Shown: positions 6,071-52,925, counted from the stretch's first letter. The stretch is 64,000 nucleotides of DNA from Patescibacteria group bacterium (GCA_043812155.1 JBDRMK010000030.1:8407-72406); one strand, 5' to 3'. Numbers and translations are program-made. Notes: a model not told the origin generated them from the sequence alone.

Positions 6071-6244
6071 AGAGAGTTCTTTAAAATATACTGGCAAATA
6101 GTAGTCATAGCCAAAAGGCACTCATTATCAATCAGATCCAAAATCGAGTTTAGGATATAACTGTCTGTGATGCGTGCTTTCTGGCTATGACTACCAAAGC
6201 GGCAGTCCTCTAGCGGTAACTCCTAAATGAAGGAGGATGACGAC

Positions 6245-6862
6245 ATGGGTAATACCATGACCACATCCGAAATGACCGATGGCCAGATTGAAAGGGCTAT
6301 CGAAATCTTCCGCGCAAAATTGCGGAAGCACAGAAACGAACTGCCGTCTGAGGCAGTTCAGATAGCGCTCGGCCAAGCGGAACTCGGTTCCGAGTGGCTC
6401 GCAGTTCTGCGCCAGCGCGTGGAAGCGATCAACGACAGCTATGAACTGCCGGTCGACTTCGACGACTCGCAGTGGAAGACGATTGACCGTAGCCGCTACG
6501 CATTCGTCGGCGACGTCACGATGGACGACTATCCTGTCACCGAGACAGGCATAAAGAAGGTTCGTTTTCGCGAGCTGGCCTTTGACCACAATCCGACAGA
6601 TCAGGAGGTTCTTGACCGGGCGGAGCAGCTCAACTGCCGCCAACTCAACCGGGCCGAAGCCGAGACCGTCATTCGGAAGAAGTATTCTCCCGAAGAGCTC
6701 GGACGTAATCCGAGAATCGTTCTGATCGGCCCTGCTGTGCGGCGCGACGGTGGGCTCCGCCGGGCGTGTGTCATTGGCCGCGGGGTTGGCGTGAGCCTGT
6801 CCTGGCTCTGGACCGAGTATCGCTGGTATCGGGACTGCCGGTTCGTGGTCGTCTGCAAGTAA
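6245..6862 (+). CDS. DGR variable (target) protein, 205 aa, C-terminal VR
   Basis: AGGAGG RBS 7 nt before ATG 6245; last ~44 codons are the VR; C-terminus ...WLWTEYRWYRDCRFVVVCK; no signal peptide; GC-rich relative to flanks. Confidence 0.8.
   Translation: MGNTMTTSEMTDGQIERAIEIFRAKLRKHRNELPSEAVQIALGQAELGSEWLAVLRQRVEAINDSYELPVDFDDSQWKTIDRSRYAFVGDVTMDDYPVTETGIKKVRFRELAFDHNPTDQEVLDRAEQLNCRQLNRAEAETVIRKKYSPEELGRNPRIVLIGPAVRRDGGLRRACVIGRGVGVSLSWLWTEYRWYRDCRFVVVCK
6727..6859 (+). repeat. DGR variable repeat (VR)
   Basis: 133-bp near-identical match to TR at 7302-7434; 19 mismatches all where TR has adenine, plus 2 non-A mismatches in last 10 bp (IMH-like). Confidence 0.85.
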
Positions 6863-6902
6863 GTGACCTTGGTCACTTGGATCTTTGGGACTTGGTAGTC
6901 CC
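6863..6902 (+). promoter_or_regulatory. Two small hairpins directly after VR/stop codon (possible DGR homing hairpin)
   Basis: GTGACC-TT-GGTCAC (6863-6876) and GGGACT-TGGT-AGTCCC (6887-6902). Confidence 0.35.
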
Positions 6903-6933
6903 TTTGATCCTTGGCCTGCGGTCATGTTATTAA

Positions 6934-6982
6934 AACTCCGTTTCACATTCCTTCGGGAGTGAGGGACGGAGTTTTTCTTTTT
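6934..6982 (+). terminator. Rho-independent terminator after DGR target gene
   Basis: AACTCCGT ... ACGGAGTT 8-bp stem (6934-6941 / 6966-6973) followed by TTTTTCTTTTT. Confidence 0.6.
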
Positions 6983-25256: not shown

Positions 25257-25473
25257 AAGGAAGCAAGCCCCTTTATCACGATAATTTAGGGGCTTTTTAT
25301 CATTGACAAATAAACGCATTTTTTGTAAGGTAAAAGACAATATTTAGGAGGAAATTGAACGTTGACAATCTAACTTTTTCCCAAAAATGGGTTTGAAAGG
25401 GGTGAACCAAAAAGCAAAAAAGCAACTAGTGGCGTTTTCAAGCGATTGTTTTTCAAGAAAGGAAGTGGAAGAA

Positions 25474-26943
25474 ATGCCTCGAATCAGTAAAATAATAGGG
25501 GAGGGCTTAACGTTTGATGACGTTTTGCTCGTTCCGGGATATTCTAAGATCCATCCCAGAAAGGTTCAGGTCGGCACCCGGCTGACGCGAAAGATCAGGC
25601 TTAATATTCCGATCGTTTCGGCGGCTATGGACACGGTGACCGAAGCTGAATTGGCCATTGCTTTGGCCAGAGAAGGCGGCCTCGGCATCATCCATAAGAA
25701 CATGAGCATTGCCGAACAGGCCCGCCACGTGGACAGAGTCAAGCGATCGCAAAGCGGTCTGATTCCTGACCCGATTACCTTGCGGCCGGATCAAACCGTG
25801 GGTGAGGCGAGAAGGCTCATGAAGAAGTACCGTTTCTCCGGCTTTCCGGTCGTCGACGGGAAAAAACTCGTCGGCATCCTTACCAGCCGCGATCTGCGTT
25901 TCGTGAAAAGGGACGATCGTCCGGTAAAGGAGGTCATGACGGCGAAAAATCTGGTTACGGCTCACGTCGGTATTTCCCTGGCCAGAGCCGAGGAGATACT
26001 GCACGAGAACCGGATTGAGAAACTGCCTATCGTCGACCGGCGCGGCCATCTGAAAGGTCTGATCACTTTCCGGGACATCCAGAAGCGTAATGACTTCCCG
26101 AATGCCTGTAAAGACGAGCAGGGTCGCTTGCGTGTCGGGGCGGCGGTCGGCGTTTCGGCGGACACCATGGAAAGAGTGGCCGCTTTGGTTGGAAAGCATG
26201 TTGACGTTATCGTGGTGGATACCGCCCATGCGCATTCAAAGGGGGCGCTTGAGACGATCAAGAAGATTCGGAAAGTCTATCCTGGCTTGCAGCTTATCGG
26301 CGGCAATATCGCCACCGCAGCCGCGGCCAGAAGTCTTATCCGTCTGGGTGTTGACGCCATCAAGATAGGCATGGGTCCGAGCGCTATCTGCACCACGCGC
26401 ATCATCGCCGGCGTAGGCGTGCCCCAGCTGACGGCCATCATGGATTGTGCCAAGGTTGCGGCCGAGGCGGGAATTCCTCTGATTGCCGACGGCGGCATCA
26501 AATTCTCCGGCGACATTGCGAAAGCCATCGCGGCCGGTGCGGATTCCGTGATGATAGGCAGTCTCTTTGCCGGCACAGACGAAAGCCCGGGCGAAATCGT
26601 CTACTTCGAAGGCAAGAACTATAAGACTTACCGCGGCATGGGGTCGCTGGAGGCGATGAAGAAAGGCAGCGCTGATCGCTACGGCCAGGATGCCAGTACG
26701 GATGAATCAAAGCTCGTGCCAGAAGGAATTGAAGGCCGTGTTTCGCACATAGGCAGTCTGGCCAGCAACATTTACCAGCTTATGGGAGGATTGCGAGCCG
26801 GCATGGGTTACTGCGGCGCGGCCACGATTGAAGAACTGAAGGCTAAAGGCCGTTTCATCCGCATTACCAACGCGGGCTTACGCGAGAGTCATCCGCACGA
26901 CATAAACATTACCAAAGAAGCGCCGAACTACCGGACGAGCTAA
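25474..26943 (+). CDS. guaB: IMP dehydrogenase
   Basis: TIM barrel with tandem CBS insert; catalytic loop [47 protein letters not shown]; start set at [11 protein letters not shown] (the ORF track's longer upstream start at 25387 not used). Confidence 0.9.
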
Positions 26944-26956
26944 GGAGGTGGACACC

Positions 26957-28468
26957 ATGCAGTACAAACAGTTAGAAGTAGAGGAGTATTTGAGGAGACT
27001 TTGGGACAAGTATAATGGCCGTGCGTTCACCATACTTTGCGGCGACCAGTGGGGAGACGGCGGAAAACGAGCGGTGGAGTCGGCGATTATTGAATACCAT
27101 GACGTTTGTGTGCGGCTGCAAGGCGGAGCGAATACCGGCGGAACGGCATATGTCATCGGGTCAGATGGCCTGCTTCACAAGTTTGTCTTCCATCTTATTC
27201 CGATCGGCTGGGTATTCGGCAAGCCGGCCATCATCGGTGACCGGGTGCTCATTGATCTCACTCGTCTCATTACGGAGACCCGGGATTTATTTGCCGTCTG
27301 CGGGAAACCATCCGCTCCTCTCTACATCAGCAAGAAAGCGCCGGTGTACTTGAGGATTCACAGCCTGTGTGAGCAGTGGGTGGAGTATATCAAAGGAGGT
27401 CACAGGATCGGGACTACCGGTCGCGGTATCGGTCCGATGATGGCCTTCACCGATCTTAGGCTTAATCTTCTGGTCGGGCACCTTTATTACCCGGATTTGG
27501 TCAGACGGTATGTCAGAGAAGCCTATCAGTTCTTAGCTCCGATCATAAAAGAGATGGATCAGCTCGGTCTGATCAGAAGTAATGATTACGATCCGGAGGA
27601 AGAAATCGCCGAGCTTCTCGCGCAAGCCGAGCCGATCCGGGAGTATGTTACGGATACAGGACCGATTCTTCACGACCTGGCCGCCAGGAACGTGCCCACG
27701 CTTTTCGGCCTGACTCAAGGCTTTGGTTTGCACTTCAGCGGAACTTATCCCTGGAATTCGGCTACGGAGTCGATTGCGTCAGGTGCCGCTTACTGCTGCG
27801 GTCTGCCTGGCAAGTATTTCGGGCCGGTGATCATGGTCTCCAAACTGCTTCCGACCCGGGTAGGAGCCGGGCCGTTTCCCACTGGCTGGTGGAAACGTCA
27901 GGAAGCCGAACAGTTTCCCAAAGATCATCCGGAACTGTTTTCCGATCTGCCGGAGTATGATCCGGAAGAGCGAGAGCAGTTCCTAGCGGAGAACCGGGAG
28001 AAAATCAACCGGGGAACAGCGAACGATATCGAGAAGGCCCAGTATTTCATGGTTTTGGGTGTTGAAAAGGGCGCTTCAACTGGGCGCGGAAGGGAAGTCG
28101 GTTTTCCCGATCTTCACGTAACTGACTGCGCCTGCGCTGTTAATGGCGTGGACAGTCTCGTTCTGACCCGCGTTGACATGCTTTCCGGTTTGGAGTTTCA
28201 ATTGCCGGTCTGCGTCGGTTACCACCTTGATGGTCAGCCGGTACCTCGATTTGTTCTTCCCACGCCGGCTGAGTCTCTGGAAAGAGTGGAACTTGATTGC
28301 GAGCCGCTTGACATCCATCTCTGTGGCGTGAATCTCACCAACTGCAGCCGCGAAGAAGCCCTGCCGCCGGATATCACCAGGCTGGTTGAATTTTATGAGC
28401 AACGGCTTGGCGTTCCGGTCAGCCTTTCAACTTCGCCTGAAAAAGGAGGGAAGATTTTCAGGCTTTAG
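26957..28468 (+). CDS. Adenylosuccinate synthetase-family protein (divergent, ~503 aa)
   Basis: P-loop GDQWGDGGK and RLQGGANTGGTAYV resemble PurA GDEGKGK / QGGHNAGH; AGGAGG RBS before ATG 26957. Confidence 0.65.
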   Translation: MQYKQLEVEEYLRRLWDKYNGRAFTILCGDQWGDGGKRAVESAIIEYHDVCVRLQGGANTGGTAYVIGSDGLLHKFVFHLIPIGWVFGKPAIIGDRVLIDLTRLITETRDLFAVCGKPSAPLYISKKAPVYLRIHSLCEQWVEYIKGGHRIGTTGRGIGPMMAFTDLRLNLLVGHLYYPDLVRRYVREAYQFLAPIIKEMDQLGLIRSNDYDPEEEIAELLAQAEPIREYVTDTGPILHDLAARNVPTLFGLTQGFGLHFSGTYPWNSATESIASGAAYCCGLPGKYFGPVIMVSKLLPTRVGAGPFPTGWWKRQEAEQFPKDHPELFSDLPEYDPEEREQFLAENREKINRGTANDIEKAQYFMVLGVEKGASTGRGREVGFPDLHVTDCACAVNGVDSLVLTRVDMLSGLEFQLPVCVGYHLDGQPVPRFVLPTPAESLERVELDCEPLDIHLCGVNLTNCSREEALPPDITRLVEFYEQRLGVPVSLSTSPEKGGKIFRL

Positions 28469-30603: not shown

Positions 30604-31983
30604 TTAAACTTTGGGCAGATATTTTTCAATATATACTTCTTTAACACGCTTGAGCTCTGAACGCGGCAGGATAGATAAAAGTTTCCAGCCCAGGTCCAGA
30701 GTTTGGATTATCGTCCGGTCTTCATTCAGCCCCTGCCGGACGAATTTATCCTCAAATTCATCCGCGAATTTAGAGAATTTTTTATCGTCTTCTGAGAGGG
30801 CCGCTTCGCCCAAAATAACGGCCAGCTCTTTGGCTTCTTTGCCCCGGGCGTAGGCGGCGAACAATTGGTTTAAGACGCCGGCATGGTCTTCGCGGGTTTT
30901 TCCTTCACCAATGCCTTTGTCTTTCAAGCGGGAAAGTGAGGGCAGGACATCCACGGGGGGATAAATGCCTTTGCGGTGGAGTTCCCGGGAAAGCAGGATC
31001 TGTCCTTCAGTAATATAGCCGGTTAAATCAGGAATGGGATGGGTTTTGTCGTCTTCCGGCATGGTTAAGATGGGAATCTGAGTAATGGAGCCTTTTTTGC
31101 CTTTGATCCGGCCGGCTCGTTCTTAAATCGTGGAAAGATCGGTGTAGAGATAGCCGGGATAGCCGCGGCGACCGGGGATTTCTTTGCGGGCGGCGGAGAT
31201 CTCGCGCAGGGCTTCGCAGTAGTTGGTCATGTCGGTCATAATAACAAGGACATGCAGGTTTTTTTCAAAAGCCAGATATTCGGCCGTGGTCAGGGCGATG
31301 CGGGGCAGGGTTATGCGTTCTACCACCGGATCATCGGCTAAATTGACGAAAAGCACGGCCCGGGCAATGGCGCCGGTCGCTTTGAATTCATTGATGAAAT
31401 ATTCGGATTCTTCAAAAGTGATGCCCATGGCGCAAAAAACCACGGCGAATTCCGATTTTTCCCCTTGGCCGATCACCTTTGCTTGCCGGGCGATCTGACT
31501 GGCCAGGGCAGAATGGGGTAGACCGGAGCCGGAAAAAATGGGAAGCTTCTGGCCGCGCACCAGGGTGTTAAGCCCGTCAATCGTGGAAATGCCCGTTTGA
31601 ATAAAATCATTGGGATAATCGCGGGCAAAAGGGTTGATCGGCGAGCCATTAATGTCTAGTTTCTTTTCCGGGATGATTTTCGGGCCGCCGTCTCTGGGGT
31701 TGCCTGACCCGGAAAAAACCCGGCCGAGCATGTCGGAAGATACGCCGATCTCCATGGTTTTTCCCAAAAATTTCGCTTTGGTGTTTTCTACCTGCAGTCC
31801 CCGAGTTTCTTCAAACATTTGGACTATTGCGGATTTTTCTGAAATTTCCAAGACCCGGCCCCGTCTTTTTTCTCCGGACGGCAATTCCACTTCCACCATT
31901 TCCTGGTATTTCACGCCTTCAACTCCTTCAACAATCAAGAGGGGGCCGGCGATCTCTTTTATGGTTTTATATTCTTTTAACAT
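30604..31983 (-). pseudogene. ntpB: V-type ATP synthase subunit B interrupted by one in-frame TAA (plus-strand TTA at 31123-31125)
   Basis: Two same-frame ORFs (286 aa + 152 aa) together span full B subunit; stop replaces the conserved Tyr in ...DLSTI[Y][29 protein letters not shown]. Confidence 0.75.
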
Positions 31984-39862: not shown

Positions 39863-39892
39863 AAAAGCGCCCTTAATCGATCTAAGGGCGCG
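39863..39892 (-). terminator. Terminator for Cys-rich gene cluster
   Basis: GCGCCCTTA..TAAGGGCGC hairpin with T-run on minus strand. Confidence 0.6.
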
Positions 39893-39916: not shown

Positions 39917-40312
39917 TCATGAGTCGTCATGATCTCTTTGCGGTGAGCGAGTGAAGCCCAGGCCTTCTTCAACCCGGGCGATTTCCCGAGCGTGCCGGCC
40001 GGAACCGCCATCTTCCAGTCTCAAGCGGACTAGGCGCAGATAGTATTTGAGATAGCTCAGCACTTGACTGACACTTTCCTGGCGATAAAGATTTTCCGCC
40101 AATTTCGGCAGGTTAGGGTCGTCTTTCAGGGGGAAGGGAACCGGCATTCCTACCGAGCAAGGGCCGGATACAAAATGTTCACAAGGGGTTCTCTGGCGGA
40201 GGACTTTCTTTTTCACGGCACAGTCGGGATTATAGATCGTTTCTCTCATATCGGCCCAGGCCGTGGAAAAGTACTTGGCGCAGGTGGGTTGACGTGGACA
40301 GCAATTAGCCAT
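39917..40312 (-). CDS. Cys-rich hypothetical protein P3 (131 aa)
   Basis: Starts MANCCPRQPTCAKYF; ATG overlaps stop of P2 (TAATG); Cys knuckles CPRxxxC..YF and PCxxxxxxPC; GC-rich. Confidence 0.5.
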   Translation of the reverse strand: MANCCPRQPTCAKYFSTAWADMRETIYNPDCAVKKKVLRQRTPCEHFVSGPCSVGMPVPFPLKDDPNLPKLAENLYRQESVSQVLSYLKYYLRLVRLRLEDGGSGRHAREIARVEEGLGFTRSPQRDHDDS

Positions 40313-40518
40313 TATTTCTCCCTTCTTGCCCCCTTTTTTGCCAAAGGATAATTCTTTTTCATTTCGGCTAGGGCCCGTGCGTTTCGGCAGGCGCCGTTTT
40401 TCCAGAACAGGCAAGGGTGATGTTCCCGGCTTTTCTTGTCACCCTCCAGGACACTGGGATGAAAGTAGTGTCGGCATTTTTTCCGGCGCGGACATTTTGG
40501 TTCGTACGGCATAATCAT
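40312..40518 (-). CDS. Cys-rich hypothetical protein P2 (68 aa)
   Basis: KCPRRKKCRHYFHP...HHPCLFWKNGAC paralogous knuckle pattern to P3. Confidence 0.5.
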   Translation of the reverse strand: MIMPYEPKCPRRKKCRHYFHPSVLEGDKKSREHHPCLFWKNGACRNARALAEMKKNYPLAKKGARREK

Positions 40519-40533
40519 ACCTCTCAGTCGTAT

Positions 40534-40707
40534 CTACGCACTGATCACAGTTTTTTCGTGGTGCCTTGAATCGCTGTTACCGCAGATGCCATCCGGGCAA
40601 TACTGACAGGTTTCGTTATTTCGGCACCAGCCGTCTGCAAAAACGATAGCAGTCGGTTTTTTATAGCCCTGGCAGTGAATCTGATGGATGCAAAGATTTT
40701 TAACCAT
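40534..40707 (-). CDS. Cys-rich hypothetical protein P1 (57 aa from ATG; ORF track shows longer TTG start)
   Basis: MVKNLCIHQIHCQGY...GWCRNNETCQYCPDGIC; GGGGG/AAGG RBS. Confidence 0.45.
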   Translation of the reverse strand: MVKNLCIHQIHCQGYKKPTAIVFADGWCRNNETCQYCPDGICGNSDSRHHEKTVISA

Positions 40708-40816
40708 ACCTTTTACCCCCGGTTTATTGAAATGAGCGTTGATCAAAATGGATTATAAAATCTTAGCACAATAGCTCTATTAGTCAAATTCAAAAATTAG
40801 CCTTAAATTATTAATA

Positions 40817-40847
40817 AAAGAAAAACCCTCTTCATGAGAGAAGAGGG
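40817..40847 (-). terminator. Rho-independent terminator after membrane-protein gene pair
   Basis: CCCTCTTC-ATGAGA-GAAGAGGG with T-run on minus strand. Confidence 0.65.
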
Positions 40848-40879
40848 TTCGCGCTTATAGCGCTCGAGAACGTGCAGTG

Positions 40880-41785
40880 TTAGTCGACGAACTTTACGAC
40901 CGGGCAGATGTCGTTAAGAAACGCTTTGATCCAAAGGAGAGCAGGATTGCTTTCCTTGACTTTATTGACCGCGCGTTGGGACGGCCACTGTCCGAGACCC
41001 GTCCGGGTTTCCTCCCGTTTTTCCTCGCGGCGATCATGCCAGTCTTCGACGGCATCTTTTCCCGCGCTGACGCCGATAAACACGCCGATAAAAACGACGA
41101 TCACGCCGACGATAAACGGAATAATTGCGACAACCAGATGCTTCAGCCAGCCGTCGAAGATGACGATCGGGCTGACGTACAGAACGACTATCGCCACGAT
41201 GATCAGCGCGAAGACGTAGTTGCGGGAAGCGAGAATCCTTCCCTGTCCGCCGATCTCCGCCAGCTTTTTCATCAATTGCCCGATTGAACGGAAGAACGCG
41301 CCGAGCGTAGACACTGCGAGCCAAGCTCCCAGCAGGCTCAAGATGAAAACAGAGCCTACCCCGACGTACCAGTACCTTATCGCCGGAATACAGAGGGGGG
41401 AAAGGCCGACGATGAGGATGAGCAGGCCGCCGAAGGTCAGAAATCGGTTGACTCGGCAGGTGCACATCCGGCTGAATCCCGGGAAGAGGTACTTCCGGAA
41501 GGGCCAGGCAATTTTCTCCACGGGCCAGATGATCCCATACTCGAAGAGGAACCGGATGGCCTTGGCGAAGTACTTCATCGCCAAGAGAGCCGGGTAGAGT
41601 ATCGGGCAGAACACGAAGGTGGCGAAGACCGCCGGCCAGAACCAGAGGCAAATGTGCGATTCGTCCGGCACGTAGGTGTACCAGCAGCGGTTCTGGCGCA
41701 TGACTTTCCAGCCCCTATAGAGAAGGGATTTTTTCCGGATTTCCGGGGGATGGATGACGTGCGCGATGGTTGATCTGATGGTCAT
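40880..41785 (-). CDS. Polytopic membrane protein (301 aa), unknown function
   Basis: At least 6 TM helices; Cys-containing loops (MCTC); stop/start overlap with upstream gene (ATGA). Confidence 0.6.
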   Translation of the reverse strand: MTIRSTIAHVIHPPEIRKKSLLYRGWKVMRQNRCWYTYVPDESHICLWFWPAVFATFVFCPILYPALLAMKYFAKAIRFLFEYGIIWPVEKIAWPFRKYLFPGFSRMCTCRVNRFLTFGGLLILIVGLSPLCIPAIRYWYVGVGSVFILSLLGAWLAVSTLGAFFRSIGQLMKKLAEIGGQGRILASRNYVFALIIVAIVVLYVSPIVIFDGWLKHLVVAIIPFIVGVIVVFIGVFIGVSAGKDAVEDWHDRREEKREETRTGLGQWPSQRAVNKVKESNPALLWIKAFLNDICPVVKFVD

Positions 41786-42384
41786 GACCGATCACCTCCT
41801 TTGATCTTTACATCTTTCACGTATTTCAGATCGATTGGCTGTCCGGCCGCCATGATTTTGCCGGCGATCATCGACAGCGTGGAGTCGGTAGGACAGGCAA
41901 GGTACTGCCGGACGTCGCTTGCGACGTTGAGCGAGTTGAGGTTGGTGAGAAAGTATTCCCTGAGTCCATGATAGGGAAGATAGACCCTTTCATAGTACCT
42001 TTGGGTTTTTTCCAGACCATACCCTCGGATGCCTGTTGAGTCCAGCAAGGCGCATTTGAAGGTGAGCCTTGCCTTCTCGGTTACCCCGTAGGAATTGTAC
42101 AATTCGTAGCTAAACTCACGGGATTCATTTGCATCCAGCAAGAATCCCCGCGCCGGCAGCCCGAAATGAGCCAGACCGATGTGGGTGACCCGGCCGTTTT
42201 CGACCTGCGCCGAATTCCGGTCAATGTACGCCACATAGTTGAAGGTGAAGACAAAGGCGAATAGCCAGCAGAACAGCAGTTTCGCCACCCTCTTCTTTTC
42301 CTTCATCGGGGCGTAGTTGTCTTCGATCAGCGGGAAAACGCTGAACAGGAGAAGAACGATCAGAGTGGTCTCTAATCCGAACAT
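41782..42384 (-). CDS. Single-pass membrane-anchored protein (200 aa), unknown function
   Basis: AGGAGG RBS; N-terminal TM then soluble domain; translationally coupled to downstream membrane protein. Confidence 0.6.
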   Translation of the reverse strand: MFGLETTLIVLLLFSVFPLIEDNYAPMKEKKRVAKLLFCWLFAFVFTFNYVAYIDRNSAQVENGRVTHIGLAHFGLPARGFLLDANESREFSYELYNSYGVTEKARLTFKCALLDSTGIRGYGLEKTQRYYERVYLPYHGLREYFLTNLNSLNVASDVRQYLACPTDSTLSMIAGKIMAAGQPIDLKYVKDVKIKGGDRS

Positions 42385-42546
42385 AACTTCCTCCTTTTCT
42401 GGAAGTTAGGGGTTTTGGGTTTTCTTGCCACAGACTAGACTAGTTATCAAAGGCCGATCCGGATCCGAAAGTTTGCAGACTAACTGAATATACTATCACG
42501 TTTTTCCTTTTTTGTCAAGACTTCGGTTAAGGGCTATAATTTAAGC

Positions 42547-45500
42547 ATGAAAATCAACCCAGTGCAACATAAAGCCATTGAACACGGCCAAGGACCGTTG
42601 CTTATCGTCGCCGGGGCCGGGACGGGAAAAACTACGGTCATAGCGGAGCGTTTAGCCTATTTGATTAAAGAAAAGAAGGCTTTACCACAAGAAATTTTGG
42701 CTTTGACTTTCACGGATAAAGCGGCCGGGGAAATGGAGGAAAGGGCGGATATATTGCTGCCTTATGGTTACGTGGATCTGTGGATCTCTACTTTTCATTC
42801 TTTCGGGGAGAGAATATTGAAGGAACACGCCTTGGATATCGGCCTGGACCCGGGTTTTAAATTATTGAACTCGGTTGAGCAGTGGCGCATAATCCGGCAG
42901 AATTTCAGCCGGTTTGAGCTGGAATATTACAAGCCCTTGGGCAATCCCACCCGGTTTATTTACGCTTTGCTCAAAGTTTTTTCCCGAGCCAAGGACGAGA
43001 ATGTCAGCCCGGCCAATTTTCTGGCTTACGCGGAAAAGAAAATGAAAGCGGATAATGGCGAAGAGGCCCAAAGAATTTTAGAAGTGGCGAAAGCTTATCA
43101 GACTTACCAAACCCTTTTAACAGAAAAAGGCGAATTGGATTTCGGTGACCTAATTATCCGGGCTTTGGACCTTTTAAAACAAAGAAAAAATATCCTGGAA
43201 AAATATCGTCAGCAATTTAAATATATTCTCGTTGATGAATTCCAAGACACGAATTTCGCCCAGTATGAGATGCTGAAATCATTAGCCGCTCCAAAAAATA
43301 ATATTACCGTGGTGGGGGATGACGACCAGTGTTTGCCGGGTGAAACTTTGATAAAAACTAAGTTTGGAGAAAAGAAAATAAAAGATATAAAAGCCGGGGA
43401 TACAGTCTTGGCGGCCGTGGGCAAGGGCCATACCAGCTACTCGCCAGTAAAAAAGGTTTTTAGAAATAATAAAGAGGCCAGATTTTTACAAATTAAAACT
43501 AAATCCGGCCGAAAAATAGAAGTGACGGATAATCATAAAATGTTTTGTTTGGTACCGAAAGTTTCTGATAAGAAATATTATTATGTATATTTAATGCAGC
43601 GCCAGGGTTTTGGCTGGCGGCTAGGTATTACCAATGATTTGGCGACTCGATTGAGGTTAGAGCGTTCAGCGGATAAAATTATAGGCTTAAGGGCTTTTAA
43701 TAAAGAGATAGAAGCCAGATTCTATGAAAGTCTTTGGGCGGCAAAGTATGGCTTGCCGACGGTTTGTTTCTGCCCGCGCGACAATATGATAAGAGGTGAA
43801 TGGCTTGACCGGCTTTATCGATCAATTGGCACGGAAGAAAACGCCCGAAAGCTGGCATGTGATTTGCGCGTTGATTTAACCGCCCACCATTTTTGTCTTG
43901 ACAGTGTTTTTCGGGGGAATAAATTAAGAAACAAGATCAATCTTGAATTGTGTTACCGCCGTTATATCAGCAAGACCGGCCGCAAGTTTTTAGTTTCGCC
44001 AAAAGTGTCTCATCTTGTCAGTTTAGAGACCTCAAATTTGCAGGTGGTCGCCAGTTTAAGAAAAGGAGGGTATCAGGCCCATAGGGCGAAAAAGGGCTAT
44101 CGTTTTCGGGTAGAGAGTCCTGATATTGGAAAAGTCGGTAAGATCGCTTTGGCCTGGCAGAAAATATCCGCAGGAATACTTGAACAGAAATTTTCCGTGG
44201 GAAAAATAAAAATTCAGCACCGTAAAGCCTTGGTTATGCCGGCGGGCAACCTTTTGCCCGGTCATTATCTGCCGATCATAAAAGGCAAGGAAATAATTTA
44301 CGACCAGATTATTGAGATAAAAGAAGAAGTTAAAGCGCGAACTGTTTTTGATTTGGAAATAGAAAAAACGCACAATTTTATTGCTAATGGGGTGGTGGTG
44401 CATAATTCTGTTTATAAATTCCGCGGCGCGGCTATTTCCAATATCCTGGAATTCAAAAAAGATTTTCCAAATTGCGAGGAAATTGTCCTGACGGAGAATT
44501 ACCGCAACCGCCAGAACATCCTTGACTTGTCATACAAATTTATTCAGTTAAACAATCCGGACCGTTTGGAAGCGCGATTAGCCAAGAAGCAGATTGACGA
44601 CAAAGGTGAATTGCTGACCAAGAAAGTGACCAAAAAGTTGATCGCGCAAAATAAAGGTTTGGGGAAAATAGAACATTTGCATTTTATCACTCAAGAGGAA
44701 GAAGCCTTGGGGGTGGTGGAGAAAATATTGGCCATTAGAAAGAAAGACCGCAAATTGACCTGGAACGACTTTGCCATTCTGGTGCGAGCCAATGACCAGG
44801 CGAATATTTTTATTAATCTAATGAACAATCAGGAAATTCCTTATCAATACGTGGCTAATCGAGGTTTATACCAGAAACCCGAGATCATGGATCTGATCGC
44901 TTATTTAAAATTACTGGATAATTACCATGAAAGTACGGCTCTTTTCCGGGTGATTAACATGCCGATTTTTCATTTTGCGCCGGAAGACACGCATACTCTA
45001 TTAAATCACACTTATCGTAAAAATGTTTCTTTGTATGAAGCGATGCAAAGCGCGGAAGCGAGAGAAAAATTAAAACCTCAAACGCAGAAGGATCTGGATA
45101 AATTATTGGAAATGATCAATAAACACACGGCTTTGGCGTGCGAAAAAGGCGCGAGCCGGGTTTTGTTCCAGTTTGTGGAAGATTCCGGTTATTTCAAATA
45201 TCTTTCCAAAAAAGAGACGATTCAGAGCGCGGAAAGTATTTTGAACATCAACCAGTTTTTCAAGCAGACAGAGGAGTTTGAAAGATTGAACGCGGATAAA
45301 TCCGTGAAAAATTTTATCGCGGAGCTGGATCTGGCGATTGAAGCCGGAGAAGAAGGAGCCTTGGGCCATCAATCCATGGAAGAGGGGCCGGAAAGCGTCA
45401 AAGTGATGACCATTCATCAAGCTAAAGGCTTGGAGTTCACTCATGTTTTTATGGTTAATTTAGTGGATAAGAGATTTCCGTCTATTGAAAGAAAAGACCC

Positions 45501-46518
45501 AATTGAACTGCCGGATGAATTAATTCAGGAAATTATTCCCGAAGGAGATGTGCATTTACAAGAGGAAAGACGGTTATTTTACGTGGCCATGACGCGGGCC
45601 AAGCAGGGTCTTTATTTTACGACGGCTGAAGATTACGGCGGAATGCGGAAAAAACGTTTATCCAGATTTTTATATGAAATTGAATTGGAAAAATTCGGGC
45701 GAAGGGCCGGAGCAAAAATGAAACAGCAAAGACTGATCTTTGAAAAAATGGCCGGGCATAAAAATATCCTCACTTTAAAAAGAAATCTGGACTGGCTACC
45801 GCAGAAGTTTTCCTTCACCCAATTGAAAGCTTTTGAAGTCTGCCCCTATCAATACCGCTTCGCCCATATCTTACATGTGCCGGTCAAAGGCAAAGGCGCT
45901 TTTTCTTTCGGCAAAACCATTCATAACACCATGCACGAGTTTTATGTCGCCATCCAAAAAGGGGAAAAGCCGACTTTGGAAGACTTATTGGCGATGTATG
46001 AAAGAAATTGGATTGACGAGTGGTATGATGACAAGGCGCATGAAGAAAGAAGAAAAGCCAAAGGGAAACAGGTTTTGCAAGAGTTCTACAAAATTAATGA
46101 AAAAACCTTTAAGGCGCCGAAATTCCTGGAGCAGGGCTTTAACATAAAGATCGGCCTCCACACGATAAAAGGCTTTATTGACCGGGTGGACGAAATGCCG
46201 GATGGCCGGGTGGAAATTATTGATTATAAAACCGGCAATCTGCCCAAGGTAAAATCCAGTATTGATACCGAGCAATTGCTAATTTACGCCTTAGCCTGTC
46301 AGGACGTTTTTAAATTAAATCCGGCCAAATTGACCTTCTATTATATTGAAGATAATAAAACCTTTACTTACCAGTCTAGGCAGGAGGAGATAGAGGAGGT
46401 CAAAAAAAGAGTGGTGGGCACGATTGAGAAAATCCTGAAAAGCGATTTCAAGGCGACGCCGTCGCAATACAAATGTAAATACTGTGATTTTAAAGAAATT
46501 TGTGAATATAGAGTTTAA
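42547..46518 (+). CDS. UvrD/PcrA-family helicase fused to C-terminal Cas4/AddB-type PD-(D/E)xK nuclease, intein-containing (1323 aa precursor)
   Basis: Walker A GAGTGKTT, motif II VDEFQDT, motif III split as VGDDDQ | intein | SVYKFRGA; C-terminal nuclease IIDYKTG with CPYQYRF...CKYCDFKEIC cysteine cluster. Confidence 0.85.
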   Translation: MKINPVQHKAIEHGQGPLLIVAGAGTGKTTVIAERLAYLIKEKKALPQEILALTFTDKAAGEMEERADILLPYGYVDLWISTFHSFGERILKEHALDIGLDPGFKLLNSVEQWRIIRQNFSRFELEYYKPLGNPTRFIYALLKVFSRAKDENVSPANFLAYAEKKMKADNGEEAQRILEVAKAYQTYQTLLTEKGELDFGDLIIRALDLLKQRKNILEKYRQQFKYILVDEFQDTNFAQYEMLKSLAAPKNNITVVGDDDQCLPGETLIKTKFGEKKIKDIKAGDTVLAAVGKGHTSYSPVKKVFRNNKEARFLQIKTKSGRKIEVTDNHKMFCLVPKVSDKKYYYVYLMQRQGFGWRLGITNDLATRLRLERSADKIIGLRAFNKEIEARFYESLWAAKYGLPTVCFCPRDNMIRGEWLDRLYRSIGTEENARKLACDLRVDLTAHHFCLDSVFRGNKLRNKINLELCYRRYISKTGRKFLVSPKVSHLVSLETSNLQVVASLRKGGYQAHRAKKGYRFRVESPDIGKVGKIALAWQKISAGILEQKFSVGKIKIQHRKALVMPAGNLLPGHYLPIIKGKEIIYDQIIEIKEEVKARTVFDLEIEKTHNFIANGVVVHNSVYKFRGAAISNILEFKKDFPNCEEIVLTENYRNRQNILDLSYKFIQLNNPDRLEARLAKKQIDDKGELLTKKVTKKLIAQNKGLGKIEHLHFITQEEEALGVVEKILAIRKKDRKLTWNDFAILVRANDQANIFINLMNNQEIPYQYVANRGLYQKPEIMDLIAYLKLLDNYHESTALFRVINMPIFHFAPEDTHTLLNHTYRKNVSLYEAMQSAEAREKLKPQTQKDLDKLLEMINKHTALACEKGASRVLFQFVEDSGYFKYLSKKETIQSAESILNINQFFKQTEEFERLNADKSVKNFIAELDLAIEAGEEGALGHQSMEEGPESVKVMTIHQAKGLEFTHVFMVNLVDKRFPSIERKDPIELPDELIQEIIPEGDVHLQEERRLFYVAMTRAKQGLYFTTAEDYGGMRKKRLSRFLYEIELEKFGRRAGAKMKQQRLIFEKMAGHKNILTLKRNLDWLPQKFSFTQLKAFEVCPYQYRFAHILHVPVKGKGAFSFGKTIHNTMHEFYVAIQKGEKPTLEDLLAMYERNWIDEWYDDKAHEERRKAKGKQVLQEFYKINEKTFKAPKFLEQGFNIKIGLHTIKGFIDRVDEMPDGRVEIIDYKTGNLPKVKSSIDTEQLLIYALACQDVFKLNPAKLTFYYIEDNKTFTYQSRQEEIEEVKKRVVGTIEKILKSDFKATPSQYKCKYCDFKEICEYRV
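43330..44406 (+). mobile_element. Intein (359 aa) in helicase motif III
   Basis: Begins with Cys after DDDQ (block A CLPGETLI), block B TxxH (VTDNHKM), ends ...ANGVVVHN followed by Ser +1; extein junction restores VGDDDQSVYKFRGA. Confidence 0.8.
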
Positions 46519-47416: not shown

Positions 47417-47929
47417 ATGACCCCATTATTCAAAAAAAACGATCCGTCTTTGCCCTGGGACGAGAAAGTTGCCGAAGGGCCCCCAAAATCTGCGGAAGAA
47501 AAACCAAAAACAGAGATTCAAAAACCCAAAAGAATTAAAATTACTATCGTAATTGCCAGCGTGATATTAGCGATTGGACTTACTTATATAAGTTCATTTA
47601 TCAAAACTCAGAGCGCCTGGGATAAATGCTATAATAAGCAAAATGGGGGGCTTCCTTTTCAATATTCTCATCAACTTGAACAAATTATTCCTCCAAATAA
47701 GGCCTGTTATACTATTATGGGGGAAGAGGTGGCTTTTTTTCTTTTTCCGGAAATTATTTATGATTTTTCGATATATTTTTTGATTACTTCCATAATTATT
47801 TCTTACTTTTTTCGTCATAAAATAAAAAATTATAGACGTTTTGTCATCAAGCTAATAATATTCGCAGTTATAATCAGTATGATATCATGGCTTTTTTATT
47901 TATATTTATGGTCAAATTCGGATATTTGA
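47417..47929 (+). CDS. Hypothetical membrane protein (paralog of 46537..46941)
   Basis: Pro/Lys-rich N-terminus, TM helices; shared downstream ATTTGCGAGTTTAG repeat. Confidence 0.4.
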   Translation: MTPLFKKNDPSLPWDEKVAEGPPKSAEEKPKTEIQKPKRIKITIVIASVILAIGLTYISSFIKTQSAWDKCYNKQNGGLPFQYSHQLEQIIPPNKACYTIMGEEVAFFLFPEIIYDFSIYFLITSIIISYFFRHKIKNYRRFVIKLIIFAVIISMISWLFYLYLWSNSDI

Positions 47930-52445: not shown

Positions 52446-52925
52446 GTGTATAATTATAATATGAAGAGAAAAAGCCTGATTATAATTTTTATTATCGCAT
52501 TTCTCCTGCTAACTGGCGGAATTTTAGGGTATAAATTTTATTTAACTCCAAAAACATCCGGTTATCTGGAAATAGAAGATATTTTATCTAATAAGGAATT
52601 TTACATAAATAAAGAGATTGAAACAACCGGGACAATCGTTAGAACTCGTGGATTTAATTTGTATTATGATTTAGTGACGTATACTATGATAAAAAATAAA
52701 ATTAATCCAGGAAATGGGTTAAGTCTTGAATATATGGGAAATTTGGAACCTTTTGTCGAATATGAATGTGATATAAAAATGAACAGTGTTAATTATAAAA
52801 TAATGGAAAATGCCCCTTCCGTGGTTTATATTAAGGGCATTTTTAAAGATCATGGCGAGGTAACGGATATCTCCCGGTATTATTTGGAAGTTGTAGAAAT
52901 AGAAGAATTAAAAGTAGTTAATTAA
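52446..52925 (+). CDS. Hypothetical exported protein (159 aa)
   Basis: N-terminal signal anchor LIIIFIIAFLLLTGGILG; AT-rich. Confidence 0.45.
   Translation: MYNYNMKRKSLIIIFIIAFLLLTGGILGYKFYLTPKTSGYLEIEDILSNKEFYINKEIETTGTIVRTRGFNLYYDLVTYTMIKNKINPGNGLSLEYMGNLEPFVEYECDIKMNSVNYKIMENAPSVVYIKGIFKDHGEVTDISRYYLEVVEIEELKVVN

Follow-up and report, generated by a model that had tools for sequence, protein, structure and literature searches.

Two neighbouring transcription units, a coupled membrane-protein pair and a set of small four-cysteine proteins, in a GC-rich block of a Patescibacteria genome

Within a 64,000-nucleotide (nt) stretch of an NCBI Patescibacteria metagenome-assembled genome (MAG; GCA_043812155.1, JBDRMK010000030.1:8407-72406; hereafter the window, in whose coordinates all positions are given), we analysed a block of five minus-strand genes encoding two membrane proteins, M1 and M2, and three small cysteine-rich proteins, P1, P2 and P3 (Table 1; locus tags ABIH38_05385 to ABIH38_05405, on a 107.5-kb contig). 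We lean towards interpreting this block as two functionally independent, neighbouring transcription units, because the two gene sets possess separate predicted promoters and terminators, do not co-occur elsewhere, and differ in that M1-M2 alone deviate in composition. On this interpretation M1-M2 would constitute a rare membrane cassette, possibly organised around an SPFH-like scaffold, and P1-P3 would represent lineage-specific genes for a new small domain bearing four cysteines (Cys4).

An earlier reading of the window, made from its DNA alone (the sequence-only reading), had described a 200-amino-acid (aa) transmembrane (TM)-anchored protein and a 301-aa polytopic protein joined by an ATGA overlap, followed by an intrinsic terminator and a separate unit of small proteins, two of which overlap as TAATG. 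Each of these features was recovered, the membrane proteins corresponding to the open reading frames (ORFs) M1 and M2 (GGAGGTGA lies upstream of the M2 start) and the TAATG overlap to the junction of P2 and P3. Promoters and terminators were placed by consensus scans of the sequence and are therefore predictions; since a terminator and then a second promoter fall between M2 and P1, the block would be read as two transcription units. The -10 region of this second promoter, GTGCTAAGATTTTA, is kept in the only other locus found to carry P2-P3, a 1.2-kb Logan contig (L020; SRR15313068). The sizes given for the small proteins, 57, 68 and 131 aa, held for the first and third but not for P2, which we assign 66 aa from the second ATG because this start fits the Shine-Dalgarno (SD) spacing, the NCBI annotation (ABIH38_05390) and the start of the L020 orthologue. 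Upstream of M1, an 8-bp hairpin (42382-42406, minus strand; AACUUCC…GGAAGUU) pairs the SD region with an upstream anti-SD; this small hairpin aside, the M1 5' leader scored no better than shuffled sequences as a structured RNA (z = +0.95).

Compositional analysis separated the two gene sets. The GC content of the block, 52.2%, exceeds both the window mean of 44.9% and the immediate flanks of ~39-41%, and corresponds to the 97.5th percentile among windows of the same size. An island richer than a ~40% GC backbone, as previously described, is thus borne out with respect to the flanks, but not with respect to the window as a whole, which is uneven (1-kb bins span 35.5% to 56.7%) and still richer at 25.5-28 kb. 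The richest GC (about 55-56%; 55.8%) was observed at 25387-28468 (plus strand), in genes for IMP dehydrogenase (IMPDH) and adenylosuccinate synthetase, and because conserved housekeeping genes are here also GC-high, high GC alone is not evidence of foreign origin. Calculated within the window, GC at third codon positions (GC3) of M2, 0.755, is the highest among 46 tabulated genes, the dinucleotide signature difference (δ*) of M1-M2 is 163 versus 72±31 for the window, and among 43 genes M1 and M2 take the 3rd and 4th places for deviation in codon usage. P1-P3, by contrast, are compositionally ordinary (δ* at the 77th percentile; GC of P1, 0.466). The anomaly is therefore confined to the M1-M2 part of the block, and the horizontal acquisition that had been proposed from composition remains fitting for M1-M2, which are both deviant and patchily distributed.

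The pairing of M1 with M2 was found to be rare and conserved. Among 5.8 billion proteins we identified three relatives of M2, at 31-33% identity, and two of M1, and an exhaustive HMMER profile search for M2 across 1.84 billion cluster representatives returned 14 proteins, 4 of them strong matches. An M1-like gene precedes every close M2 homologue with upstream DNA available, the junction consisting of a 4-nt overlap, a 1-nt overlap or a 1-nt gap. With L004 and L006-L013 counted as one lineage, given that they represent one population, the pairing was identified in seven distinct lineages (the window, L001, L002, L003, L004/L006-L013, L016 and L017), and no gene of the P1-P3 type lies beside the pair in the six others. 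Conservation of neighbourhood thus supported the coupling of the membrane genes to each other, but not their association with the cysteine-rich genes. Neighbouring genes are wholly different between loci (NUDIX and deoxyribosyltransferase; a response regulator with patatin; helicase), and, within one population, 23 contigs show a stable context. No phage genes flank the pair in any locus; housekeeping genes are found instead (V/A-ATPase, glycosylase, helicase, PNPase, ProRS, GyrA). Further, the pair stands above its surroundings by 6-11 GC points and 10-30 GC3 points in 4/4 loci whose flanks were usable, namely the window, L001, L002 and L004. Together, elevated GC and GC3 and patchy distribution favour repeated horizontal transfer, and M1-M2 is probably a rare, horizontally transferred cassette. 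Searches of phage genomes with M1 and M2 (tblastn), of plasmids with M2 (tblastn), and of viral contigs by pattern scans with the M2 alignment and tblastn confirmation, identified no match and no M2-family relative.

Also observed were features of the genomes carrying the closest homologues of the pair. Their MAGs (L004/L006-L013 and L001/L005) are labelled 'uncultured Gammaproteobacteria', and one such population includes contigs of 0.9-1.2 Mb in which the pair adjoins genes for an XerC-like recombinase and a TM-anchored response regulator as well as a convergent patatin gene. The patatin side of this synteny is also present in L002.

Table 1. Genes and predicted transcription signals of the block, in window coordinates
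Feature	Position	Strand	Remarks
M1	41782-42384	-	200 aa; good SD site
M2	40880-41785	-	301 aa; start overlaps M1 stop (ATGA); good SD site
P1	40534-40707	-	57 aa, 6 Cys; good SD site
P2	40312-40512	-	66 aa, 4 Cys and 4 His; good SD site
P3	39917-40312	-	131 aa; start overlaps P2 stop (TAATG); good SD site
σ70-type promoter of M1-M2 unit	42490..42518	-	TTGACA-17-TAGTAT with TG; consensus scan
Helicase promoter	42512-42540	+	back to back with M1-M2 promoter
Intrinsic terminator, end of M1-M2 unit	40823..40850	-	11-bp stem, then T-run; strong
Promoter of P1-P2-P3 unit	40760..40787	-	TTGACT-16-TAAGAT with TG; consensus scan
Intrinsic terminator, end of P1-P3 unit	39867..39891	-	consensus scan

Examination of M2 revealed a relationship to phage proteins. 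From hydropathy, M2 is predicted to possess ~6 TM helices with both termini cytoplasmic, in accordance with the positive-inside rule. The helices are enclosed by an N-terminal cap (LLYRGW…NRxW…ICLWFWPA, with HICLWFWPA at C46) and a C-terminal cap (IKAFLNDICPVVKFVD, with C294), the C-terminal tail comprising a 66-aa charged linker and a short hydrophobic cysteine motif. Among 17/17 full-length members of the family we identified an N-terminal motif running into TM1 (…Y-R-x-W…N-x-L-W…P-x4-[LIV]-C-x-[YWF]-[FW]-W) and a C-terminal motif (…[IL]-K-A-x-K-x3-C-P-x-[VI]-x-F-x-[DE]), each with an invariant cysteine, and the TM core between these caps varies from ~2 helices in phage proteins of 130-150 aa up to at least 6. 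Residues 192-301 of M2 match phrog_944, a family annotated only as 'membrane protein' (E = 1e-6); three weaker matches of the exhaustive M2 search (P0015, P0017 and P0019) match the same family at 1e-21 to 1e-25; and alignment by hhalign of the M2 family with the membrane protein of phage MX01 gave 93% probability (E = 3.4e-7). P0015, a representative member, has homologues in about 580 phage records, which come mainly from T4-like phages whose hosts are Escherichia, Klebsiella and Vibrio. In MX01 and Acinetobacter phage 133, the two genomes of such phages that were examined, the gene is situated in the stretch bounded by rI and an nrdC.11-like nucleotidyltransferase, and within it between mobD.1 and the latter. 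By sequence comparison, M2 is accordingly placed as a distant member of an unnamed superfamily that includes phrog_944, for which a literature search found no reported function. A search of PDB sequence profiles with the M2 alignment returned nothing significant.

For M1 the relationship to known proteins is suggested by predicted structure. Two N-terminal hydrophobic TM helices (~residues 2-20 and 33-51), kept across homologues, provide a membrane anchor and are followed by a soluble domain of ~145 residues with a predicted βββ-αααα-β order and the motifs FGLPARGF and QRYY. The closest structural match of an AlphaFold2 (AF2) model of M1 was prohibitin (score 7.4), followed by the SPFH domain of the stomatin PH1511 (7.1; 90/106 residues aligned at 3.0 Å), flotillin (6.8), FliL (6.7) and HflK (6.5), the last three interspersed with helical noise. 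The top five Foldseek matches were likewise all of SPFH fold (vault shoulder domain, prohibitin and HflK), at E-values of only 0.3-1 for a model with a predicted local distance difference test (pLDDT) score of 58. The chances that M1 is an SPFH-like scaffold appear to us evenly balanced. PDB sequence profiles searched with the M1 alignment gave nothing significant, and a literature search for SPFH proteins in Patescibacteria returned nothing relevant. Two other candidate homologues of M1 were tested and rejected, namely the phage protein MobD.1 and the ~170-aa partners encoded beside the distant M2-like genes L018 and L019.

If M1 is such a protein, it would be a membrane-anchored scaffold with a minimal SPFH-like α/β domain of the stomatin/prohibitin/HflK/FliL type, forming oligomers on the membrane around or beside M2 and controlling it, as do other SPFH proteins co-transcribed with a small polytopic partner. 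The pair itself would represent a self-contained, translationally coupled two-gene membrane cassette moving between genomes. It probably serves membrane integrity or stress, or works where phage and host meet, and is unlikely to be enzymatic.

The three small proteins share a domain for which no relatives of known family were identified. Over five sequences we derived the signature C-x5-C-x2-Y-x(2-22)-P-x(9-10)-R-x4-C-x5-G-x-C, with 8 invariant columns (C, C, Y, P, R, C, G, C). A relaxed pattern, C-x5-C-x2-[YF]-x10-45-C-x7-C, has exactly 3 matches across the six translated frames of the 64-kb window, one each in P1, P2 and P3, and because it occurs in only these three ORFs the shared motif is not attributable to chance. 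P2 and P3 are also related by BLASTP (E = 0.001), so that the earlier description of three tandem paralogues is supported for these two and by the common motif for all three, but not by pairwise comparisons of P1, which were not significant. P2 is strongly basic (isoelectric point 10.2; 19 lysine and arginine residues in 66 aa), and in P3 a Cys4 domain at the N-terminus is followed by a C-terminal half that varies. Neither a signal peptide nor a TM segment was detected in P1, P2 or P3, and lacking a signal peptide they are presumed cytoplasmic.

Comparison with L020 provided an evolutionary view of these genes. Its P2 orthologue is 85% identical at the protein level, with a ratio of nonsynonymous to synonymous substitution rates (dN/dS) of 0.09 at dS ~1.0, demonstrating that P2 is under purifying selection. 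The P3-like gene, which encodes 84 aa and overlaps P2, is 34% identical in the cysteine domain (E = 2e-8) and unrelated in its C-terminal half. An HhH-GPD glycosylase gene lies beside P2-P3 in L020 too, in convergent orientation and with 82% identity to the window copy, and the promoter is homologous to that of the P1-P3 unit; P1 is absent. The 247 bp of contig upstream of P2-P3 contain no M2, the 26-codon gene end found there being that of another gene. From these comparisons P2 would be the conserved core of a small-protein operon, and P1 appears as an additional Cys4-domain copy specific to its lineage. Judged by their sequences, we take P1-P3 to be real, selected genes for a new small Cys4 domain specific to one lineage. 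The four cysteines of this domain might bind one metal ion or cluster, and the very basic, strongly conserved P2 may bind nucleic acid, with P3 serving as its translationally coupled, fast-evolving paralogue and partner.

Searches for further relatives of the small proteins were negative. P3 matched itself only among 5.8 billion proteins; scans of viral contigs and of metagenome contigs, each with the cysteine-domain and P2 alignments, found none; and tblastn of P2 and P3 against phage genomes gave no match. A literature search for small cysteine-rich proteins in Patescibacteria yielded nothing relevant. That the five proteins fall outside any nameable family, as stated earlier, was confirmed with Pfam, NCBIfam and PADLOC; when these scans, including PADLOC-DB at E ≤ 10, and PHROGs were applied to the five proteins and to a neighbouring 52-aa ORF described below, the match of M2 to phrog_944 was the sole link obtained. 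Three further motifs were also considered for the P domain and rejected, since the order and number of cysteines did not fit and no match to a hidden Markov model (HMM) was obtained: WhiB-like (C-x2-C-P-V-x3-C), Rrf2/IscR (C-x5-C-x5-C) and the endonuclease III Fe-S loop.

Several results weigh against the interpretation of the two units outlined above. The AF2 model of M1 is poor (pLDDT 58, the β-region below 50), having been built from a 3-sequence alignment. No Band_7 HMM match at E ≤ 10 was obtained for any of 6/6 M1-family members, and hhalign scores of the M1 soluble domain against a profile of E. coli HflK, HflC, QmcA and YqiK fall within 150 column shuffles (z -0.1 to -0.7), an initial P = 0.0056 having been traced to the TM region. 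SPFH proteins oligomerise via a C-terminal coiled-coil; M1 has no C-terminal coiled-coil or oligomerisation helix, its last predicted β-strand (E188-196) ending 4 residues before the C-terminus. M2, moreover, is not NfeD-like, having no NfeD Pfam match and no OB-fold (NfeD_C) layout in its C-terminal tail. The distant M2-like genes L018 and L019 follow an unrelated gene, in place of M1, whose ~170-aa product carries TM segments at both ends; the L019 pair lies ~10 points above its flank in GC, and L018 is not clearly above. With regard to transfer, repeats flanking the block, direct or inverted, are short chance-level matches only, and no integrase, transposase or other mobile-element gene occurs among its neighbours. 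For the small proteins, P2-P3 were found at a single other locus, on one short contig; no homologue of known function was found in our searches; the metal and nucleic-acid binding proposed for them is suggested by composition alone; and the AF2 model of P2, from a 4-row alignment, was discarded at a pLDDT of 47.

An alternative for the small-protein unit is that P2-P3, with or without P1, form a toxin-antitoxin (TA)-like cassette or one resembling precursors of ribosomally synthesised and post-translationally modified peptides (RiPPs), and are not binders of metal or nucleic acid. The two small coupled genes retain a 1-nt overlap in two genomes and evolve asymmetrically (P2 is 85% identical, the P3 cysteine domain only 34% with a replaced C-terminal half), and RiPP substrates are typically Cys-rich peptides. 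However, P2 and P3 are paralogues with one common domain, which would be unusual in a TA pair; no radical-SAM enzyme or other maturase and no transporter are encoded nearby; no TA family in Pfam, NCBIfam or PADLOC was matched; and the 8 invariant scaffold positions, with Y, P, R and G among them, speak for a folded domain as opposed to a leader and core peptide. We therefore regard this alternative as unlikely.

Very improbable, in our estimation, is the single module of the sequence-only reading, in which all five genes were acquired horizontally together and the cysteine-rich proteins act with the membrane pair in metal/redox handling or defence: the five lie next to one another on one strand, in a locally GC-rich stretch, and are all orphans, and the two invariant cysteines of M2 could be imagined exchanging metal or redox equivalents with the small proteins, but a terminator and separate promoter divide the sets, the cysteine genes are absent from the six other M1-M2 lineages, L020 is syntenic in its glycosylase and carries P2-P3 with no M1-M2 adjoining, composition is deviant in M1-M2 and ordinary in P1-P3, and PADLOC gave no match. 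Nor did its associations fare better individually, as nothing indicating a redox or defence function was found, and the block is surrounded by housekeeping genes, none of them from a mobile element. Adjacency to the intein-containing helicase is real, although nothing functional was found to link the two, which share just a divergent promoter region.

Returning to the interpretation as two independent units, a more specific and tentative synthesis, to which we assign a rather low probability, can be formulated. M1-M2 might exemplify an unrecognised class of SPFH-like scaffold and client, in which M1 is a cryptic minimal SPFH protein undetectable by sequence models and M2 a client from a two-cysteine-capped superfamily with members in the Candidate Phyla Radiation (CPR), in additional uncultured bacteria and in several hundred T4-like phages. 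Such a cassette would be horizontally exchanged, which would account for its always being GC3-rich relative to its host, and would act at the phage-host membrane interface, e.g. in exclusion or membrane repair; in the same synthesis, the P2/P3 Cys4 domain would be a new metal- and nucleic-acid-binding fold of one Patescibacteria lineage. If M1 truly possesses an SPFH fold, SPFH scaffolds would reach into sequence space beyond current profiles and pair with non-NfeD partners. Through the link to M2, phrog_944, a family of ~580 phage genome records, mostly T4-like, to which no function has been assigned, gains its first cellular setting as well as a candidate partner. The P2/P3 domain may be viewed as a compact, selectively constrained Cys4 scaffold without relatives, and as a small, clean case of a protein invented within one lineage among the reduced genomes of the CPR. 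No long-standing open question is touched by these findings, and because orphan genes are the norm in Patescibacteria, they are of practical use chiefly for annotation and for generating hypotheses.

The surroundings of the block contain a number of additional features. It is bordered on one side by the HhH-GPD glycosylase gene and on the other by a gene (42547-46518, plus strand) for a 1323-aa fusion of a UvrD-type helicase with a PD-(D/E)XK nuclease, into which a Hint/intein is inserted at ~residues 259-620; a V/A-ATPase operon lies near. Between 39606 and 39764 (minus strand) we also identified an unannotated ORF for a 52-aa protein with a single TM segment, MWLEIIKALANLAVIYCLLGIYFLG…, with a strong SD (AAGGGAGG), a near-consensus promoter of its own (TTGACA-17-TAAAAT, 39825-39797) and, seen by eye, a downstream hairpin and T-run. 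Neither the protein collection nor the syntenic contig L020 contains this ORF, which could be a gene for a small membrane or toxin-like peptide. The V/A-ATPase B-type subunit is apparently split (30604-31983, minus strand) into ORFs of 286 aa (31123-31983) and 152 aa (30604-31062), the latter containing the end of the ATP-synt_ab domain and the VA_C domain; this could reflect a frameshift, a pseudogene or an assembly error in an operon otherwise intact at 29.8-38.6 kb. In codon usage the window deviates most at two short AT-rich genes without a Pfam match (47417-47929 and 52446-52925, both plus strand; 32% and 29% GC), which are stronger compositional outliers than the block. The top dinucleotide-signature deviation of the window falls in 1.5-kb windows around 5.75–7.75 kb, and at 6191-6946 long overlapping ORFs without a Pfam match occur on both strands (251 aa on the minus, 211 aa on the plus). 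Scans of the window identified no tRNA gene and, at the gathering threshold, no Rfam match.

Comparison with known systems places both units at some distance from described families. Like zinc ribbons and rubredoxin-type knuckles, the P domain has four cysteines as two pairs in a small protein; unlike them, its pairs are C-x5-C and C-x7-C in 5/5 sequences as opposed to CxxC/CPxC or CPxCG, and no zinc-ribbon family was matched at E ≤ 10, so that the zinc-ribbon or knuckle assignment previously given to it, which likewise found no Pfam match, is not upheld. The nearest, though not significant, PDB profile match of the P alignment is the U2AF23 ZnF2 CCCH finger (E = 1.7). CCCH (C3H1) fingers, e.g. 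U2AF23 ZnF2 and TIS11d, have the form C-x7-8-C-x5-C-x3-H over a contiguous ~25 residues. The P domain reads C-x-[FHY]-[WFC]-x-x-G-x-C in its second half (CLFWKNGAC in P2), which resembles the first part of such a finger, the first half of P2, C-x5-C-x4-H, resembles the second part, and P2 is very basic, as are RNA-binding fingers. The P halves, however, stand in permuted order and 20-32 residues apart, the third cysteine and the histidine of the canonical finger are absent, and no Pfam zf-CCCH match was found in P1-P3.

M2 resembles phrog_944 (Escherichia phage MX01 gp091 and Acinetobacter phage 133 p112) in possessing both cysteine caps and a charged linker before the C-terminal one, although only the caps align between the 301-aa, ~6-TM M2 and phage proteins of 130-150 aa with ~2-3 TM helices, and the phage genes lack an M1-like neighbour. 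The pair as a whole was compared with operons of SPFH proteins and their partners, namely E. coli qmcA-ybbJ and yqiJ-yqiK and P. horikoshii PH1511/PH1510. Such SPFH-partner operons are the rule, and SPFH-NfeD pairs are reported to co-evolve and to be laterally transferred together (PMC2636767). M1 differs from SPFH proteins in its lack of detectable Band_7 similarity and of a C-terminal coiled-coil, and M2 from their NfeD partners in belonging to another family with no OB-fold. Nevertheless, M1 shares with the SPFH group (Band_7; stomatin, prohibitin, flotillin, HflK-C, and likewise FliL) an N-terminal anchor followed by a predicted βββ-αααα-β domain, with SPFH proteins as its best structural matches, and the arrangement of E. 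coli qmcA-ybbJ, in which an SPFH gene is followed through a 4-nt overlap by that of a small membrane partner, is like that of M1-M2.

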